From Krischvirus LF73P4, in sequence record OZ035795.1: a DNA stretch of 64,000 nucleotides; one strand, written 5' to 3'. A program made the translations under genes and the position numbers. The notes below the pieces were generated by a model. The model did not search any database, was not told the DNA's origin, and worked only from the letters and a program-made list of their open reading frames with translations. This document shows, piece by piece, positions 17,734 to 24,568 of the stretch. Numbering within the stretch: position 1 is the first letter of the stretch; each line of letters begins with the position of its first letter.

Positions 17734-18111
17734 ATGAAAAATATGATTACGCCGGAAGATGTAGCATTCAAAACCGCATTCAACGGAGATATTCTTATTT
17801 TTATCGACGGTAAACACGCCGGAATGATTGAACAGGAAGGTCGCTGGGGTGTTGCTGAACTATATAACGTGGCGGGTGTAGAAGGTCATAAAACAGCACT
17901 TGTTTTCTTGTCGGATAAAGATCAAATGCGTCGAAAAATTGCTGCGCTCTATAATGAAGCAGTATATTTCTACGAACCGTTTCATCGTATTAAAACGATC
18001 TCCCGCGTGACTCGAAAAGATGTTAATGCTTGTGTTATCAAGATTGTAGAGAATCAGGATAAACTGACGAAAGACCAGATTGTTGACTTACTGAAAGAGA
18101 TTATTCTATGA
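17734..18111 (+). CDS. hypothetical protein
   Basis: 125-aa ORF, TATAAT -10 about 25 nt upstream. Confidence 0.5.
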   Translation: MKNMITPEDVAFKTAFNGDILIFIDGKHAGMIEQEGRWGVAELYNVAGVEGHKTALVFLSDKDQMRRKIAALYNEAVYFYEPFHRIKTISRVTRKDVNACVIKIVENQDKLTKDQIVDLLKEIIL

Positions 18112-18284
18112 TTGGATTTAAACAGTTTGTTGAAGAAAATAAACTCAAAGAAGATATGACCGCTGGCGATGCTGGCGGCAATCCTGAGAAGATCGCAGCA
18201 GGTGAAACGAGCGGATCTATTACCAATCGTGGACCTAGTGTAGCGGGTAAAGAAAAACGCAAAAAGGAGAAAGACGGTGCTTAG
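18108..18284 (+). CDS. hypothetical 58-aa protein
   Basis: Not in track; ATGA overlap with upstream stop; MIGFKQFVEENKLKEDMTAGDAGGNPEK... Confidence 0.3.
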   Translation: MIGFKQFVEENKLKEDMTAGDAGGNPEKIAAGETSGSITNRGPSVAGKEKRKKEKDGA

Positions 18285-18291
18285 TATCATC

Positions 18292-18435
18292 ATGTTTATC
18301 GTTGGCTTGCTGTCCGCTATTATCGGTGTTGTTATTTTCGGATTATCTGGACACAAAACAAAAACAGAAAAGTTATCCGAGATCACAATGTATGTTGGTG
18401 TAGTTCTCATTCTGTTGTCGGTGGCGCTTAAATGA
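18292..18435 (+). CDS. hypothetical 47-aa membrane peptide (two hydrophobic segments)
   Basis: Not in track; MFIVGLLSAIIGVVIFGLSGHKTKTEKLSEITMYVGVVLILLSVALK; stop overlaps next ATG. Confidence 0.3.
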   Translation: MFIVGLLSAIIGVVIFGLSGHKTKTEKLSEITMYVGVVLILLSVALK

Positions 18436-18635
18436 TTACGATGAAATGTCTTAAAAGCACATATGCACTTTTTGAAGCCGGAAAAGAATATGAATTTACA
18501 GAACTTGACCCGGTAGGCCGTTTTCGTGTATTCTCTTACACATCGCCAGATGGTAGTGTCTACAAATTTGGATTAGATGAGAACGGAGAGAATGAAAATG
18601 AAAGTGTAGGAACTTTCATGAAATTTGAGCTATAA
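18432..18635 (+). CDS. hypothetical protein
   Basis: 67-aa ORF. Confidence 0.4.
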   Translation: MITMKCLKSTYALFEAGKEYEFTELDPVGRFRVFSYTSPDGSVYKFGLDENGENENESVGTFMKFEL

Positions 18636-18644
18636 GAGGTTATT

Positions 18645-19673
18645 ATGATTTACTACGCAGATTATGAAATAGCGGAAAAAGCCATATACGGCGAACGAAA
18701 TTTTAAACGGTTGCATACTAGCTCATTTACGCTGGTCTGTAGTTGTCCGATCTGCGGTGACTCAAAGAAAAATCATACTCAAGCGCGATTCCGTATCTAT
18801 ACCTATAAGGATAGTTTGCGTTGTGGTTGTTTCAACTGTAACTACAATCAGCCGTTAGGTGAATTTCTCAAACAGTATAAACCGGACCTATTCAGGGAAT
18901 GGCTTATGGAGAGACGGAAGGAACAAGGCGACCACAAGAACACCACGTTCAAGCCACTGAAAAAGGTAGAAAAGCCGGAGATTAAGAAAGTGCAAACATT
19001 GCCTTTCTGCGAGAGATTAGATACTCTTCCGGCTAATCATCCTATAATAAAGTATGTCAGTGATCGTTGCATCCCTCACGATAAATGGGATCTTCTGTAT
19101 TTCACGAGAGAATGGCAAAAGGTAGCAAATCACATTAAGGCTGATACTTTCAAGAACCCACAACCTGAACCGCGTTTAGTGATTCCTATCTTTAACCGCG
19201 AGAACAAGATAGAATCCATTCAGGGGCGAGCATTGAGAAAGGATTACGGAAAGACCAAATATATGACGATTAAAACTCATGAGTTAGCGAGTAAGGTCTA
19301 TGGTCTTGAACGCGCCGATCCGAGTAAGCCAGTGTATTTCTTAGAAGGTCCGATCGATTCATTGTTTATTGATAACGGGTGTGCAATTACTGGCGGTACT
19401 TTGGGATTAGATGAAATACCTTTCCCAGACCAGCGAGTGTTTGTACTTGATGCGGAACCACGGTCTGCCGATACAATGCACCGACTGGAAAAGTTTATCA
19501 ATGCAGGGGAAAAGATTGTATTGTGGGACCGTTGCCCGTGGCATTCTAAAGACGTTAACGCCATGATTCAGGACGAGGGCGCTACACGCGACCAGATCAT
19601 GGAATATATCAAAGAGAACACCGTACAAGGTCTGATGGCTAAAATGCGGTTTATGAAATATTGTAAATTTTAA
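18645..19673 (+). CDS. 61: DNA primase gp61
   Basis: 342 aa; N-terminal zinc-binding CPICGDSKK..H...C..C, TOPRIM-like C-terminal half; follows 41 as in T4. Confidence 0.85.
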   Translation: MIYYADYEIAEKAIYGERNFKRLHTSSFTLVCSCPICGDSKKNHTQARFRIYTYKDSLRCGCFNCNYNQPLGEFLKQYKPDLFREWLMERRKEQGDHKNTTFKPLKKVEKPEIKKVQTLPFCERLDTLPANHPIIKYVSDRCIPHDKWDLLYFTREWQKVANHIKADTFKNPQPEPRLVIPIFNRENKIESIQGRALRKDYGKTKYMTIKTHELASKVYGLERADPSKPVYFLEGPIDSLFIDNGCAITGGTLGLDEIPFPDQRVFVLDAEPRSADTMHRLEKFINAGEKIVLWDRCPWHSKDVNAMIQDEGATRDQIMEYIKENTVQGLMAKMRFMKYCKF

Positions 19674-19687
19674 TTAATGAGGTGAAT

Positions 19688-20206
19688 ATGTCAGAATTTA
19701 ATTCTTGTGCTGGTCTGGTTAACGAAAAAGATATTAACGCGGCTATCGCCGCATATCATCACGCTATTGCAGAAGGTAAAGATCCGTTTCAGGTGATGCT
19801 CGAAATGCAAACTGGTTTGCAGGTTGCATTATCCGAAAAATTTGATTGGGTCCCAAATCCAACTAAGCTAGAGACTTGCGGTGAAATGCTGGATTGGATG
19901 CAACGGATGGATGACGCTATCGCAGACGAAACACGAGAGCTTTACACATCGCTGGGTGGAATGTCCAATGGTAAAGATGCAAGTGCAATCTGGAAAATGT
20001 GGAAAAAGAACCACGGAGAAGCGCGAGCGCGTAAATTCTCTGAACTGTCACCGGAAGATCAGCTTGAAGTGAAATTTGAATTTGTGGACGCGATCCACTT
20101 CATTCTGTCAAAGATGATCCCGCTGGGTATTGACGCTCAAGAACTCTTTATTCTGTACTATCTGAAAAATGCTGAAAACTTCGCCCGTCAAGAACGCGGC
20201 TACTAA
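19688..20206 (+). CDS. 56: dCTP pyrophosphatase gp56-like (MazG-type)
   Basis: 172 aa from ATG 19688; KDP.QVML.MQ; KLET.GE...WM; SPEDQLE.KFE.VD; LYYLKN.ENFARQ.RGY match recalled T4 gp56. Confidence 0.75.
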   Translation: MSEFNSCAGLVNEKDINAAIAAYHHAIAEGKDPFQVMLEMQTGLQVALSEKFDWVPNPTKLETCGEMLDWMQRMDDAIADETRELYTSLGGMSNGKDASAIWKMWKKNHGEARARKFSELSPEDQLEVKFEFVDAIHFILSKMIPLGIDAQELFILYYLKNAENFARQERGY

Positions 20207-20213
20207 AAATTAG

Positions 20214-20272
20214 TTGACACTAATCTATAATGGTTTTATTATGCCTCCCGTCGAAAGATTGGAGGCTTTTTT
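20214..20272 (+). promoter_or_regulatory. promoter TTGACA-N17-TATTAT overlapping terminator-like hairpin GCCTCC-N12-GGAGGC plus T6
   Basis: Hairpin 3' arm GGAGG doubles as Shine-Dalgarno for ORF 20276. Confidence 0.45.
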
Positions 20273-20275
20273 ATT

Positions 20276-20779
20276 ATGCAATTTACACCAGAAGAACTTA
20301 ACATCATTGATGAAGTGATGAACTCTAAAGAAAATATCGATATGTCGATCCTTAATGGATTGATCGAAAAGACTGAGCGGTTAGTGCATCATGAAGCCTT
20401 GTATCGCGGTGTGAGCAAAAGAGAAGGCCGTAAGCTGGATACCTTAATTGTAGGTGATTCTTTCGTTGTAGAGCGTCCTATGAGCTTTACGCCACTGAAA
20501 TCAACAGCAGAGGACTTTGCAACCGATGTTTATGCAACAGGAAAGATTATTGCAATAAAACCTACCAAGCCTTGCATGAATTATTACGAACATGCTATTG
20601 ACCGAGTGGTGTCTAAAGAGTATGACAATCCGACTACTCGACTGTCTTTGTATGCTATGTTGGCAGATGAGCGCGAGTGCATATACAAGACAGGGACGAC
20701 CATGATCCTTGATGAGATCGAGGAAGTTTACGCGTGTAATGGCGAGCTGATAGAGATTTACAAATTTTCTTTAATTTAA
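20276..20779 (+). CDS. hypothetical protein; possible ADP-ribosyltransferase-like R-S-ExE motif
   Basis: 167 aa; LYRG (R44), MSFT (S70), DERE (E132/E134) in the order of ART motifs; weak motif evidence only. Confidence 0.45.
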   Translation: MQFTPEELNIIDEVMNSKENIDMSILNGLIEKTERLVHHEALYRGVSKREGRKLDTLIVGDSFVVERPMSFTPLKSTAEDFATDVYATGKIIAIKPTKPCMNYYEHAIDRVVSKEYDNPTTRLSLYAMLADERECIYKTGTTMILDEIEEVYACNGELIEIYKFSLI

Positions 20780-20840
20780 GTGTTGACAGCACAAACCAGA
20801 TAGACAATAATACACACATACCAACTAAGGAGAATCAATT

Positions 20841-21596
20841 ATGAAACTGTTTGCTTTTAAATCTAACGAAGAATTGGCGCTGGTTGTTTTCCGGCTGAAC
20901 TCTATCATGGCTGGTGCTTCACGTCGCAACAAAGACTTCTCTATGAGCTTAGTCACTGTGCGTAACATTTACCGACAGACTCATTGCGCCTATTCCGGTG
21001 AGGCTTTCGGTGAAGGTGATGATGGACTCTCCTTAGAGCGCATTGATTGCAATCTAGGATATGTTGATGGCAATGTAATTCCGGTTAAACTGAAATACAA
21101 TTCTTTCCGTGGCAATCACACTATCGAATCTCTTAAAGAGATCCAGGAACTAGGAACTAACGGTAAACTTTCTGATGATGAAATTGCCCTACGTGCGAAG
21201 TACATCGAGTGGATCGAACTTAACGAGAATCGCATCAAAAATCAGGAACTGGCAATCGAAGAAAAGAAATTAGCAATCGAGCGCCACAAAAAGCACAACG
21301 AACCTGAGAAAGCAGAGGCAGTCGAGCGAGCTATTAAAAATACTCTCTTCCGTATGGAAGAACGTTATCAGAAAATTGCAGATCTCAAGCAAGCCCTTAG
21401 CGAAATCAACAAGAAAGAAGAAAAACTTAAGGCTATTGCAAACAATACCGAAGTCGTGCTAAAATATACCAGCGTTTTGATTGAATCTCTTTCTAAGTAT
21501 GAGAACTTAACGCCAGCACAAAAAGAACGCGTGAAATACGGGCTTCCGATTGATGCGTCGTGGATTGAATTGATGAAAGCGAAGGTAGGTTTATAA
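20841..21596 (+). CDS. hypothetical protein with degenerate HNH-like segment and long coiled-coil C-terminus
   Basis: 251 aa; HCAYSGE....LSLERIDCNLGYVDGNVIPV resembles a His-Me finger with substitutions; C-terminal 130 aa heptad-rich. Confidence 0.5.
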   Translation: MKLFAFKSNEELALVVFRLNSIMAGASRRNKDFSMSLVTVRNIYRQTHCAYSGEAFGEGDDGLSLERIDCNLGYVDGNVIPVKLKYNSFRGNHTIESLKEIQELGTNGKLSDDEIALRAKYIEWIELNENRIKNQELAIEEKKLAIERHKKHNEPEKAEAVERAIKNTLFRMEERYQKIADLKQALSEINKKEEKLKAIANNTEVVLKYTSVLIESLSKYENLTPAQKERVKYGLPIDASWIELMKAKVGL

Positions 21597-21910
21597 TGCA
21601 TGTATTTGCTGTATGTTATCGTGATAAAGACGGATTCTTTCAATACTCAGTGGACGCGAAGGGTCGCGTCCTAACTTGCGAAACACATGATGCTGCGTTA
21701 GCGTCAATGTGTGATCAGATAGATTATTGTGAGAGTCTATTGGCAGGTGAACCGAAATACAAGGTTGTACCTAAACGAAAATTTGGCATAATCCGGTCTT
21801 CTGAAATTGTTCGGGATGGTATCGAATATAAAATTCCTGAATATGAAAAAGAACGGGTACGGCGAGAACTCAATACTATCTGTGTTCGCAAGGTGAGGAT
21901 TTTAGGATAA
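21596..21910 (+). CDS. hypothetical protein
   Basis: 104-aa ORF overlapping flanking genes by 1 nt. Confidence 0.45.
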   Translation: MHVFAVCYRDKDGFFQYSVDAKGRVLTCETHDAALASMCDQIDYCESLLAGEPKYKVVPKRKFGIIRSSEIVRDGIEYKIPEYEKERVRRELNTICVRKVRILG

Positions 21911-23301
21911 TGAGCAGAGTATTAACTTTCGATATGTTAACAGACGGGCAAAAACATGCTTTTGATGTTCTAATGAAACGCATTGAACAAAAGAAGCATA
22001 CAACTGTCCGTGGTGCGGCGGGTACTGGTAAAACCGCAATGATGAAATTCATTGTTCAGGAAATGGTCCGCCGTGGTGTAACTGGTGTGGTTTTGGCAAC
22101 GCCTACCCACCAGGCTAAAAAAGTTTTGAGTAAAGCGGTAGGTCGTCAAGCATTTACTTTACATGCACTACTGCGACTAAACCCGACCAACTATGAAGAT
22201 ACTCAAGTATTTGAGCAAAAAGATACTCCTAAGCTAGATGATGTTCAGATCATCATTGTTGATGAAGCGAGTATGGTCGATAAGAAACTATTTGATATTC
22301 TCATGAAGAGTATCAACGGTCGAATTGTTGTTATTGCAGTTGGCGATCCGCACCAGTTACGACCAGTTGATCCGAGCGGTGCAACGTCGATCTCTCCTTT
22401 CTTCACGGATGAAAATTTTCAAAACGTGGAGTTGACAGAAATTAAACGATCTAATGCACCGATCATTGATGTGGCGACCGCTGTCCGTAATGGTAAATGG
22501 GTATTCGAAAAGCAGTGCGGCAACGAGGGTGTATTCCATAGCTCAACTCTGCCGGAGTTTATGAAGCATTATTTCGAAACCGTTAAAACGCCGGAAGACC
22601 TGCTAGAAAACCGTATTCTGGCCTACACTAACAAGAGCGTCGAAAAACTCAATGAAATTGTGCGTAAGCGCGTTTATAACACCGATGAACCAGTGATTGT
22701 AGATGAAATTCTGGTTACTCAGGAACCATTGATCGAATATCTGCGAGATGAACGCGGGAAGAAGATTCCCAATGTTATTTTTAACAATGGTGAGATGATC
22801 CGAGTTAAAGAGGTCATCCCGCGCGAATTTACATTACGTTGCACGGGGGTAGATCCGCAACCAGTTTTAGGCTATACTCTGAAAGTGGAAAGCGTCGATG
22901 ATGACGAAGACAAAGAAATCCTAAATCAGAAAGTCGGTTTAGATGCAGTCGGAATCACTACAGATAAACCAGATTTAGTAGAAATCAACATTCTGACAGA
23001 ACAACGTCAGAAGAACATTTTCTCTATCTATCTGAATACGGTCGCCGGACAATATCGCGAAATGAAGAAAGAGAATCCAAAATTTAAACCAGATTGGGAT
23101 TCCTTCTGGACGATGAAGCGTATGTTCTTGAATGTAAAAGCATTACCAGCTTGCACCATTCATAAGTCACAAGGGATCAGCGTAGACCGCGTGTTCCTGT
23201 ATACTCCTTGCATGTGTACAGACAATGTTGACTTTGAATTGGCAATGCAGTTATTATATGTGGGTGTTACCCGTGCGCGGTATCGAGTAGACTATATTTG
23301 A
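21910..23301 (+). CDS. dda: Dda DNA helicase (SF1)
   Basis: 463 aa; F..LT.GQK.AF...MK.I..KKH; Walker A GAAGTGKT; ATPTH.AKK.LSK; KRSNAPIIDVATAVRNGKW; LLYVGVTR.RY match recalled T4 Dda. Confidence 0.9.
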   Translation: MSRVLTFDMLTDGQKHAFDVLMKRIEQKKHTTVRGAAGTGKTAMMKFIVQEMVRRGVTGVVLATPTHQAKKVLSKAVGRQAFTLHALLRLNPTNYEDTQVFEQKDTPKLDDVQIIIVDEASMVDKKLFDILMKSINGRIVVIAVGDPHQLRPVDPSGATSISPFFTDENFQNVELTEIKRSNAPIIDVATAVRNGKWVFEKQCGNEGVFHSSTLPEFMKHYFETVKTPEDLLENRILAYTNKSVEKLNEIVRKRVYNTDEPVIVDEILVTQEPLIEYLRDERGKKIPNVIFNNGEMIRVKEVIPREFTLRCTGVDPQPVLGYTLKVESVDDDEDKEILNQKVGLDAVGITTDKPDLVEINILTEQRQKNIFSIYLNTVAGQYREMKKENPKFKPDWDSFWTMKRMFLNVKALPACTIHKSQGISVDRVFLYTPCMCTDNVDFELAMQLLYVGVTRARYRVDYI

Positions 23302-23311
23302 GGAAATTATT

Positions 23312-23479
23312 ATGATTATGCGAAGTATCCCAGAATTTAATGATGTGACGGTAAGCCGTCACAATGGAACTGTTACCATGTGCTTTAGATGGGGTCTATA
23401 CGGCTGGAACGTGTCCGGCGATAGTGAAGCTGCATGTATCAATAAAATGATCGAGCATTTCACTAAGCGAGGGTTTTGA
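23312..23479 (+). CDS. hypothetical 55-aa protein
   Basis: Not in track; ATG 23312 after AGGAAA. Confidence 0.3.
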   Translation: MIMRSIPEFNDVTVSRHNGTVTMCFRWGLYGWNVSGDSEAACINKMIEHFTKRGF

Positions 23480-23480
23480 T

Positions 23481-23723
23481 ATGGTTGTTATTAATAATGT
23501 GGCTAATGTAATACATCTACAATCAATTGTCGCGTGGAACCGTCAAAAGATTCATTGTGACTATGCACAACATGTAATGAATTTTAACAACAAAGTACGC
23601 GCATACATGGCAACGGAACGACTGTTAACCGATAATTACGGTAACGGGATTATTGATTGTAGCGGTTTCATTCTGGATAAAAACGATCTGGAGTTGTTCC
23701 GGCATATCGCGGAGGATATTTAA
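23481..23723 (+). CDS. hypothetical protein
   Basis: 80-aa ORF. Confidence 0.4.
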   Translation: MVVINNVANVIHLQSIVAWNRQKIHCDYAQHVMNFNNKVRAYMATERLLTDNYGNGIIDCSGFILDKNDLELFRHIAEDI

Positions 23724-23724
23724 A

Positions 23725-24393
23725 ATGCTTCCAGTGGATTTAATGATTGACTTTGAAAGTTTAGGTTATCCGCCCGATGGGGCGGTTATCAATATGGCGG
23801 CAATCGGATTTAAAGAAGATCCGCACAATCCACCTACATTTAAAGAACTGGTCGACAATTCCTTTCTGGTAAAATTTGATATTCCTTCCCAGAAAGGTGT
23901 AAGGGTGTTTGATCATGGTGTGGTTGAATGGTGGAAGAATACCGCCTCAGAAGGTATGAGAAAGCAATTAATCACAAATGGTACGGAAGTATCAACTAAA
24001 GAAGGTTTAGCGCGTTTTAACGCATTCTGTGAAGCCGTAGGGGTAGATCCGGTTAAATCCGTAATGTGGTCACGCGGTAATGCGTTTGATATTCCGTTAC
24101 TAGTTGATATGATCCGCCGTGCACACAATACACGAGAGACGTTCAGCCTTGAACCTGTGCGATTCTGGAATATCCGAGATGTTCGCACCGCCATTGAGCG
24201 TACATTGATGCATCGCGGGATGTGTGAGTGTCCGTTACCAATGGGTACGCTAGATGGTTTTATCGCACATGATGCAATTCATGATTGCGCTCGCGATATT
24301 CTTATGCTAATCTATGCACAACGTTATGCTATGGGTCTGGAAGACCTACCAGAAAATCCAGATCCAAATTCAGTTAAGAAACAAAGGGGATAA
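23725..24393 (+). CDS. dexA: exonuclease A DexA
   Basis: ATG 23725 after GGAGGA; IDFE..G; KFD...QKG.R.F....VEWWKN; FD.P.LVD.IRR; FW..RD.RT; GTLDGF.AHD.IHDCA.DILM..YA.RYAMGLED match recalled T4 DexA. Confidence 0.85.
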   Translation: MLPVDLMIDFESLGYPPDGAVINMAAIGFKEDPHNPPTFKELVDNSFLVKFDIPSQKGVRVFDHGVVEWWKNTASEGMRKQLITNGTEVSTKEGLARFNAFCEAVGVDPVKSVMWSRGNAFDIPLLVDMIRRAHNTRETFSLEPVRFWNIRDVRTAIERTLMHRGMCECPLPMGTLDGFIAHDAIHDCARDILMLIYAQRYAMGLEDLPENPDPNSVKKQRG

Positions 24394-24394
24394 T

Positions 24395-24568
24395 ATGCCA
24401 TTATACGATTATTCTTGTGAAGAACACGGTCAATTTCAGAAAATCCGCAAAATTTCCGAGCGTGAAAAGGCAGAATGCCCTGAATGCGGTAAAGAATGCA
24501 AACAGGGATTGACTGCCCCGCGCGGGATTAATGGCGGGTACTATGATAAAAATGTGCGCGTGTCATGA
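24395..24568 (+). CDS. zinc-ribbon protein (FmdB-like)
   Basis: MPLYDYSCEEHGQF....CPECGK; ATG 24395 after AAAGGGGA, 1 nt after dexA stop. Confidence 0.55.
   Translation: MPLYDYSCEEHGQFQKIRKISEREKAECPECGKECKQGLTAPRGINGGYYDKNVRVS

Follow-up and report, generated by a model that had tools for sequence, protein, structure and literature searches.

The target of bacteriophage T4 Srd is the catalytic, N-terminal half of E. coli RNase E; Srd binds there and stimulates cleavage by the enzyme, leading to faster host mRNA decay (Qi et al. 2015, as summarized in PMC4980113, PMC7430671, PMC13232886, and PMC9409239). RapZ offers a functional analogy only. This E. coli adaptor, through which RNase E is activated towards GlmZ, likewise contacts the catalytic half of the enzyme and stimulates cleavage. 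However, its fold is unrelated, and it serves a single sRNA, whereas the effect of Srd extends broadly over host mRNAs.

PacI (PDB 3LDY/3M7K) is a bacterial restriction enzyme, unlike the phage protein Srd. It belongs to His-Me "group 20" (Jablonska et al. 2017), which is predominantly viral (PMC5714182). Among HNH enzymes, PacI is exceptional in lacking a catalytic His. An Asp and an Asn coordinate the metal, and an omega-loop Tyr serves as general base or nucleophile (PMC4081073, PMC5714182, PMC3384342). Its catalytic residues were named as Arg93, Tyr100, and His42 (PMC13139853), and another paper lists "H, DR and CxxCN" (PMC11529989). Inactivated His-Me domains are also known; Smad MH1, Enpp, and the yeast Tcd C-domain have lost their active-site residues (PMC5714182, PMC13139853).

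The srd locus of Krischvirus LF73P4

The analyzed window is a 64,000-nucleotide stretch of Krischvirus LF73P4 (OZ035795.1). The ORF list and the sequence indicated that its ORF 20841..21596 on the plus strand is real; it starts with ATG and encodes 251 aa. The antisense ORFs beneath it in the list are all of 91 aa or shorter, and none was supported. With near certainty, this ORF is srd, and the phage is a T4-type coliphage of the RB49-like group (Krischvirus). Its product matched PHROG 1400 "Srd anti-sigma factor" with E 2.8e-73, and residues 8-248 aligned with profile positions 2-250 of 251. The tblastn search found Srd matches in 1168 phage records. The identity was 99.6% to the srd product of Escherichia phage JSE and 98.8% to that of Phi1, and 32% to T4 Srd, with 97% of the length aligned. 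The gene had been recognized and annotated previously. Coordinates of all features are collected in Table 1.

Table 1. Features of the srd locus in the window and of the encoded protein
Feature	Coordinates	Strand	Remarks
T4-type primase	18645..19673		srd neighbor
gp56/MazG-like pyrophosphohydrolase (dCTPase-like)	19682..20206		srd neighbor
ModA/ModB-like (ADP-ribosylase-like) ORF	20276..20779		PHROG 832, E 9e-21
Sigma-70-type (early) promoter-like site, TTGACA-17-AATAAT	20783..20811	+	upstream of srd; 11/12 matches
Shine-Dalgarno sequence AAGGAG	20827..20832	+	8 nt 5' of the srd ATG; read from sequence
srd CDS	20841..21596	+	ATG start, 251 aa plus stop; PHROG 1400 "Srd" match
Two N-terminal helices, residues 9-45 (H9-28, H37-45)	20865..20975	+	model; aligned to PacI 28-60
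Beta-beta-alpha-Me core, residues 46-92	20976..21116	+	strands 63-67, 79-83; helix 84 to ~90-92
C49, invariant lone Cys (PacI C63)	20985..20987	+	alignments
E66-R67, PacI D92 (metal ligand) and R93 (in place of the canonical catalytic His)	21036..21041	+	
Y74, PacI Tyr100 (general base/nucleophile)	21060..21062	+	Tyr in 197/200 domain copies
N78, PacI N104, middle (structural) Asn of H-N-H	21072..21074	+	alignments
N87 (PacI N113, metal ligand) through R90 (PacI K116)	21099..21110	+	alignments
Linker helix, residues 95-105	21123..21155	+	poorly conserved; model and conservation
Hairpin arm 1, residues 112-151	21174..21293	+	model and conservation
Hairpin arm 2 (longer), residues 155-221	21303..21503	+	model and conservation
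Conserved C-terminal tail, residues 222-251	21504..21593	+	two short helices; model and conservation
dda.1 (Pfam Phage_Y01A)	21596..21910	+	syntenic neighbor; start overlaps srd stop (TAATG)
Dda helicase	21910..23301		srd neighbor

The 6.5-kb neighborhood was 99% identical to Krischvirus (RB49-like) genomes. The gene order in the window is primase, dCTPase-like, ADP-ribosylase-like, srd, dda.1, and dda. The T4 order is modB-modA-srd-dda.1-dda, and a matching order was also found in JS98 and Klebsiella phage Roth17. The srd gene thus occupies the position typical of its family, between a mod (ADP-ribosyltransferase) gene and dda.1-dda. The first-pass annotation had placed the ORF where T4 carries srd/modA-type host-takeover genes. 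Synteny bore this out, and the claim was understated, since the gene is srd itself. A difference is that T4 has both modA and modB, whereas the window phage has a single mod-like gene upstream.

The LF73P4 protein and T4 Srd are orthologues of the same length class with shared synteny. Both carry the N-domain motif (C-A-Y-S-G, L-E-R-x-D, G-Y, G-N-V, N-x2-R), and both have the hairpin plus a G-x-P-L tail. However, the sequences are only 32% identical, and their hairpin arms cannot be aligned in detail. The promoter-like site upstream of srd is a consensus match only, and the region as a whole showed no enrichment of such sites over shuffled sequences. The downstream neighbor dda.1 may be co-translated with srd.

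Fold and putative active-site residues of Srd

The first-pass annotation had compared residues about 48-85 with a His-Me/HNH core in which the second Cys and the D-H pair were replaced by S and E-R. The motif that it quoted, HCAYSGE...ERIDCNLGYVDGNVIPV, is located at residues 48-82. PHROG, hhalign, and Foldseek all confirmed the resemblance, which is far above background, and the two substitutions were recovered as S52 and E66-R67 in a profile alignment with the Gme HNH nuclease 4h9d. In this alignment, "sidR" of the family stands opposite "TMDH" and "CaYtg" opposite "CHYCG". The finger extends over residues ~9-105, and we assign it with high confidence as a PacI-type His-Me (beta-beta-alpha-metal) finger.

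The 3D structure was modeled using AlphaFold2 with a 63-sequence alignment. The full model had a pLDDT of 94.8 and a pTM of 0.74, with helices at residues 9-28, 37-45, 84-90, 95-105, 112-151, 155-221, 225-232, and 241-250 and strands at 63-67 and 79-83. The N-domain modeled alone had a pLDDT of 86. The top Foldseek match was PacI 3ldy (prob 0.99, TMq 0.55). The hhalign comparison of the Srd-type domain profile with the PacI family alignment covered 92 columns and gave a probability of 96% and E 4.1e-9; when PacI was represented by its sequence alone, the values were 86% and E 5.5e-6. Srd matched the PHROG families "HNH endonuclease", "endonuclease", and "endonuclease VII" (E 2e-12, 2e-10, and 6e-5, respectively), and the PacI sequence matched the same three. 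As in PacI-like (group 20) folds, the beta-beta-alpha-Me core follows a helical, HTH-like N-terminal part. Residues 9-45 are the counterpart of this part in PacI and contain the conserved A26, R29, K31, and F33. The core (residues 46-92) has the motif Q-T-H-C-A-Y-S-G ... E-R-I-D-x3-G-Y-x2-G-N ... N-x2-R.

A motif match by chance, within some small alpha/beta domain, is an extremely unlikely source of the HNH resemblance. Several searches agree with a chance match. Pfam and NCBIfam scans of Srd and 25 relatives found no HNH and no other significant family. None of the canonical Pfam HNH families (HNH, HNH_3, HNH_4, Endonuclease_7) matched Srd at E<=1, and HNH_4 was touched by only 2 of the 25 relatives (E 0.077). 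The single-sequence phmmer search of Srd against PDB sequences returned coiled-coil noise only, and the domain-family profile gave marginal matches, with E 0.04 for 4h9d, 0.08 for PacI 3ldy (whole domain), and 0.13 for the Cas9 HNH. However, the E-values against the PHROG nuclease families, the hhalign E-value against PacI, and the first rank of PacI in Foldseek show a resemblance far above chance.

The finger is followed by a long helical hairpin with antiparallel arms, which takes up ~110 residues (112-221). The first-pass annotation had described a fusion to a long, heptad-patterned coiled coil, and the hairpin fits this description. Its long helices pack against each other with a detectable, moderate heptad periodicity (period 7 in helix 1, p ~0.011; period 3.5 in helix 2, p ~0.016). 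The arms are the least conserved part of Srd and contain many indels, and family members range from ~190 to 344 aa in length. Because its sequence and length are variable, the hairpin looks like a spacer or stalk.

The C-terminal tail carries the motif [RK]-F-E-N-L-S/T ... K-x-G-L-P-L-D-T-S ... L-L-K, and G234 was present in all 54 ungapped sequences. The tail probably packs near the N-domain, as the hairpin brings the chain back to its origin. Aligned as LPIDASW, the tail motif resembles LPLDSAT of sigma-70; the match is not significant and may be the source of the srd name.

Profile alignments paired Srd residues with PacI residues as follows: C49 with C63, E66 with D92, R67 with R93, D69 with D95, G73-Y74 with G99-Y100, N78 with N104, N87 with N113, and R90 with K116. 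S52 occupies the position of the second Cys of HNH enzymes, and E66-R67 occupy that of the D-H pair, with R67 in the place of His. The active-site pattern of group 20 was found in Srd, with an Arg after the acidic ligand, a Tyr in the loop, an Asn in the helix, and no catalytic His. Srd and PacI thus share whole-domain homology that covers the N-terminal helices and the beta-beta-alpha-Me core, and also [DE]-R-x-D, the omega-loop G-Y, and N...N-x2-[KR]. E66, R67, Y74, and N87 are assumed, from their aligned positions, to cluster in space as they do in PacI.

Conservation was analyzed first in an alignment of nine diverse orthologues and subsequently in one of 63 sequences. C49, G53, R67, G73, Y74, N78, and N87 were invariant in the orthologue alignment, and A26, F33, Q46, T47, A50, Y51, S52, F56, E66, G77, V79, V82, and R90 were at least 90% conserved. 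The mean frequency of the top residue was 0.62 for core residues 25-92, 0.22-0.25 for the hairpin, and 0.41 for the tail. Among 200 domain copies, Arg was found at position 67 in 195, Tyr at 74 in 197, Asn at 78 in 198, Asn at 87 in 197, and Glu or Asp at 66 in 197. In the 121 clusters with the Srd architecture, R67, Y74, and N78 were each present in 120, N87 in all 121, and E66 in 119.

Srd differs from PacI in its lack of zinc sites. PacI has two Cys4 sites (C5/C8/C26/C29 and C63/C66/C109/C112); both are absent in Srd, and only C49 is kept. The three zinc-partner positions of C49 are occupied by S52, V82/K83, and Y86, and there is no N-terminal zinc ribbon. PacI His42 has no His counterpart; it aligns, in the sequence alignment only, to K31. 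Of 121 Srd-type proteins, 78 have Lys at this position, and stand-alone forms have Ile or Leu. PacI Asp92 is replaced conservatively by Glu, and Srd bears a 145-residue helical extension. Two changes are specific to the Srd-architecture clade: Asp to Glu at the metal ligand (119/121, vs. mostly Asp elsewhere) and Lys to Arg at position 90.

These data bear on the claim of the first-pass annotation that the domain is a domesticated or inactivated nuclease. The missing canonical His and Cys4 knuckle agree with it. "Inactivated" is doubtful, because Srd keeps the PacI-equivalent E66, R67, Y74, N78, and N87 near-invariant (99-100%), and a decaying site would differ. Aligned with active HNH enzymes, the canonical site is not intact, but in PacI terms it is largely intact. 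Judged from the alignments, the change from D-H to E-R is a signature of the PacI branch and not a mark of inactivation. In Smad MH1, the Enpp nuclease-like domain, and the yeast Tcd C-terminal domain (9HMO/9HMP), neither the Tyr/His nor the metal ligands remain, whereas Srd retains the PacI-equivalent Tyr and metal ligands. Catalysis by Srd is conceivable on this basis.

A literature search linking Srd with HNH returned nothing relevant, and it found no description of a fold or nuclease-like domain for Srd. The fold-level description given here, a zinc-less PacI-type finger followed by a variable hairpin and a conserved tail, appears to be unpublished.

Relatives of the zinc-less domain

Residues 1-105 were searched with HMMER against 1.84 billion representative proteins at E<=1e-3. 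The search yielded 421 proteins. They had three architectures: stand-alone proteins of ~100 aa, proteins with two tandem copies (P0111, P0123, P0133, and P0119), and the Srd architecture. The zinc-less D-R-x-D...G-Y...N...N-x2-K domain was found in phages of Synechococcus, Ralstonia, Caulobacter, Streptomyces, Rhizobium, and Xanthomonas and also in crAss-like phages. The labels of these relatives are inconsistent and include Srd, sigma decoy, HNH endonuclease, endonuclease, endonuclease VII, and hypothetical. A Pfam scan of the multi-domain relatives for partner domains gave nothing significant. In the T7-like Ralstonia phage DU_RP_I, a relative annotated as "endonuclease" is fused to a zinc ribbon and encoded between exonuclease and lysozyme genes.

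PHROGs 3322, 1035, and 3118 comprise stand-alone and tandem phage proteins labeled "endonuclease", "endonuclease VII", or "HNH endonuclease", such as gp18 of Ralstonia phage DU_RP_I. They have the zinc-less domain in common with Srd and reached E-values down to 1e-19 in the scan of the representative proteins. They differ in lacking the hairpin and tail and in having mostly Asp at the metal ligand and Thr at position 52. A second Cys is often present at position 82/83, and some of these proteins carry N-terminal zinc ribbons or two copies of the domain. By analogy, the tandem copies would mimic the PacI homodimer. The relatives suggest that the ancestor was a nuclease to which T4-type phages added a hairpin and a tail, giving rise to Srd. 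An ancestral role in cleavage is suggested by relatives that are tandem-paired and found at genome positions typical of nucleases. To our knowledge, the proteins of these three PHROGs are experimentally uncharacterized, and we found no report of cleavage by any protein of the zinc-less clade.

Proposed role of Srd in the infected cell

Most GenBank records, as well as PHROGs 1400 and 4592, carry an anti-sigma label, by which Srd would be an anti-sigma factor or a decoy of host sigma-70/sigma-S and act on RNA polymerase. The name srd itself stands for "similarity with rpoD", and the only stretch aligned with RpoD is the tail motif LPIDASW, opposite LPLDSAT at sigma-70 530-536. A role of this kind is very improbable. 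Pfam gave no match to a sigma-70 region at E<=1. BLASTP against E. coli RpoD gave a best E of 3.7 in this single comparison, and hhalign of the family profile against E. coli RpoD gave a probability of 0.2%; both comparisons rejected the similarity that the gene name implies. The fold of Srd is a nuclease fold plus a hairpin, not a sigma domain, and fold searches returned nucleases and hairpins. In addition, stimulation of RNase E is the only published experimental function of Srd that we found cited.

Orthology, synteny, and the conserved motifs indicate that the RNase E-stimulating role is probably conserved in LF73P4 Srd. As the overall best explanation, we moderately favor an RNase E-activating Srd with a PacI-type pocket that engages nucleic acid. 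Srd would be an early, promoter-proximal host-takeover protein. By orthology with T4, it would bind the N-terminal, catalytic half of host RNase E and, early in infection, accelerate the decay of host mRNA that depends on this enzyme. Its PacI-type pocket (Glu/Asp, Arg, loop Tyr, Asn, and Asn) would still bind a metal and a backbone phosphate. The pocket might engage RNA or RNA-loaded RNase E, which would make Srd a RapZ-like adaptor or activator. RNase E would do the bulk of the cleavage, and Srd itself would be non-cleaving. The hairpin would set distance and geometry and return the tail towards the N-domain. We put forward only tentatively, as a possibility that falls short of even, that the N-domain is a metal- and phosphate-binding pocket engaging RNA or RNA-loaded RNase E without cutting.

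Three points stand against the overall explanation. The identity of LF73P4 Srd to T4 Srd is low, as given above. The tandem pairs and nuclease-typical genome positions of the relatives suggest that the clade originally served in cleavage. The near-perfect conservation of catalytic-type residues suits an active enzyme at least equally.

Such an enzyme would be a zinc-independent, tyrosine-dependent PacI-type nuclease that introduces nicks into the RNA (or DNA) of the host. Since cleavage by His-Me nucleases leaves a 5'-phosphate, its products would enter the RNase E pathway that senses 5'-monophosphate ends, and the outcome would resemble "stimulation of RNase E". Four of the five PacI catalytic positions (E for D, R, Y, and N) plus the structural Asn are kept in 99-100% of sequences that are otherwise 25-35% identical, and this set is missing from the dead His-Me domains Smad MH1, Enpp, and yeast Tcd C-domain (PMC5714182, PMC13139853). 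The tandem-duplicated relatives, with their likeness to the PacI homodimer, and the "endonuclease" in the exonuclease-lysozyme slot of the Ralstonia phage also speak for a nuclease. We nevertheless regard an active Srd nuclease as rather unlikely, because Srd has neither of the Cys4 zinc sites required by PacI, the His42 position is Lys, Ile, or Leu, and the metal ligand has switched from Asp to Glu in Srd-architecture proteins. Moreover, cells defective in RNase E reportedly do not show the destabilization caused by Srd, and a test RNA with a 5'-triphosphate is reported to have still needed RppH (Qi et al. 2015). This reported dependence on RNase E and RppH opposes entry sites with 5'-phosphates made by Srd. 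As far as we found, cleavage is known for no member of the zinc-less clade. A wider version, in which Srd and its phage-borne clade are working zinc-free, tyrosine-dependent nucleases and a cut made by Srd, or a covalent Tyr-RNA intermediate, at RNase E leads to the collapse of host mRNA, is improbable.

It is also unlikely that Srd is a dead nuclease domesticated purely for protein binding, with its former active-site face contacting a host protein, either RNase E or a different one, and without involvement of nucleic acid. The canonical His and the zinc knuckle are indeed absent, and T4 Srd and the N-terminal half of RNase E are reported to co-purify. The binding reuse of His-Me domains also has precedents in Smad MH1 and Enpp (PMC5714182). 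It is the residue conservation that disfavors a purely protein-binding relic. A protein interface is unlikely to hold the exact PacI set of metal ligands, Arg, Tyr, and Asn invariant, and the identical set occurs in stand-alone and tandem relatives from phages of widely differing hosts (Streptomyces, Synechococcus, Caulobacter, and Ralstonia). The conserved basic R29 and K31 on the N-terminal helices suit the binding of nucleic acid.

For the phages concerned, the analysis has several implications. The widespread label "anti-sigma factor / sigma-70 decoy" is without support from sequence or fold. The zinc-less PacI-like phage family is large, with more than 400 clusters at 50% identity, and is modeled by neither Pfam nor NCBIfam. 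If Srd were a working nuclease, it would be the catalytic partner of the degradosome and not a passive activator. For the favored RNase E-activating Srd, the conserved Glu-Arg-Tyr-Asn-Asn pocket offers a direct mutational handle on how Srd activates RNase E.

Conserved residues and relatives of the N-domain

C49 in the zinc-less PacI-like N-domain of Srd was invariant (200/200 domain copies), despite the loss of all three former zinc partners. At the position of E66, the metal-ligand site, Glu was present in 119 of the 121 Srd-type proteins, whereas PacI and the stand-alone and tandem relatives mostly have Asp there. The representative search returned four relatives, P0111, P0119, P0123 and P0133, carrying the D-R-x-D/G-Y/N/N-x2-K domain twice in tandem, and some of them had Cys-rich N-termini ahead of the domains. 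They form a single-chain pseudo-dimer, recalling the PacI homodimer. In the same search, the Srd N-domain was matched in four stretches of P0180, a giant of 3982 aa, the best being residues 1641-1706.

Gp18 of the T7-like Ralstonia phage DU_RP_I, annotated as an endonuclease, combines an N-terminal CxxC...CxxC ribbon with the zinc-less PacI-like domain. Its gene is flanked by exonuclease and lysozyme genes; this location is a core-gene position and not a homing-endonuclease insertion. The relatives P0026 (344 aa) and P0063 (182 aa) were both given a longest contig of 18,183 bp. They may represent a long and a short Srd-like paralogue encoded on one metagenomic phage contig.

Tail motif and family annotation

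LPIDASW (residues 235-241) is the best-conserved motif of the C-tail, and its family form is G-L-P-L-D-T-S. It was also the sole stretch that hhalign aligned to sigma-70, against LPLDSAT (530-536), at a statistically insignificant probability of 0.2%. The gene name, "similarity with rpoD", may have been derived from this tail motif. The annotation of the family is inconsistent across records: some GenBank records label srd orthologues as "HNH endonuclease", whereas others use "anti-sigma factor", "anti-termination protein" or "hypothetical"; the orthologues of Konradin and Roth17 are among the examples.

Coordinates of the features discussed
Feature	Location	Strand	Length
Promoter-like site TTGACA-17-TATTAT of the mod-like ORF	20214-20242		
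mod-like ORF	20276..20779	+	167 aa
Codon of C49	20985-20987		
Codon of E66	21036-21038		
LPIDASW	21543-21563		
TAATG	21594-21598		
dda.1	21596..21910	+	
srd orthologue, Acinetobacter phage Konradin	L002:1450-2403		
srd orthologue, Klebsiella phage Roth17	L003:1501-2256		
gp18, Ralstonia phage DU_RP_I	L007:2947-3396		149 aa

Genes flanking srd

Window positions 18000-24500 were 98.6-99% identical to phages Skers, FL38 and Delraymugoa. The alignments fell into two pieces, which in these phages together extend over roughly 178 bp more sequence than in the window; a small indel relative to these phages lies within the 6.5-kb stretch.

Upstream of srd, the mod-like ORF matched PHROG 832 (ModA/ModB, "RNA polymerase ADP-ribosylase"; E 8.8e-21) and no Pfam family. 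The window has one such gene, whereas T4 has two (modA and modB). By eye, LYRGV, MSFTP and ERECIY in this ORF look like the R, S and E-x-E motifs, respectively.

Downstream, the srd stop codon overlaps the start of dda.1 in TAATG. Dda.1 belongs to Pfam Phage_Y01A. The order srd-dda.1-dda is also kept in T4, JS98 and Roth17, which makes dda.1 a possible functional partner of Srd.
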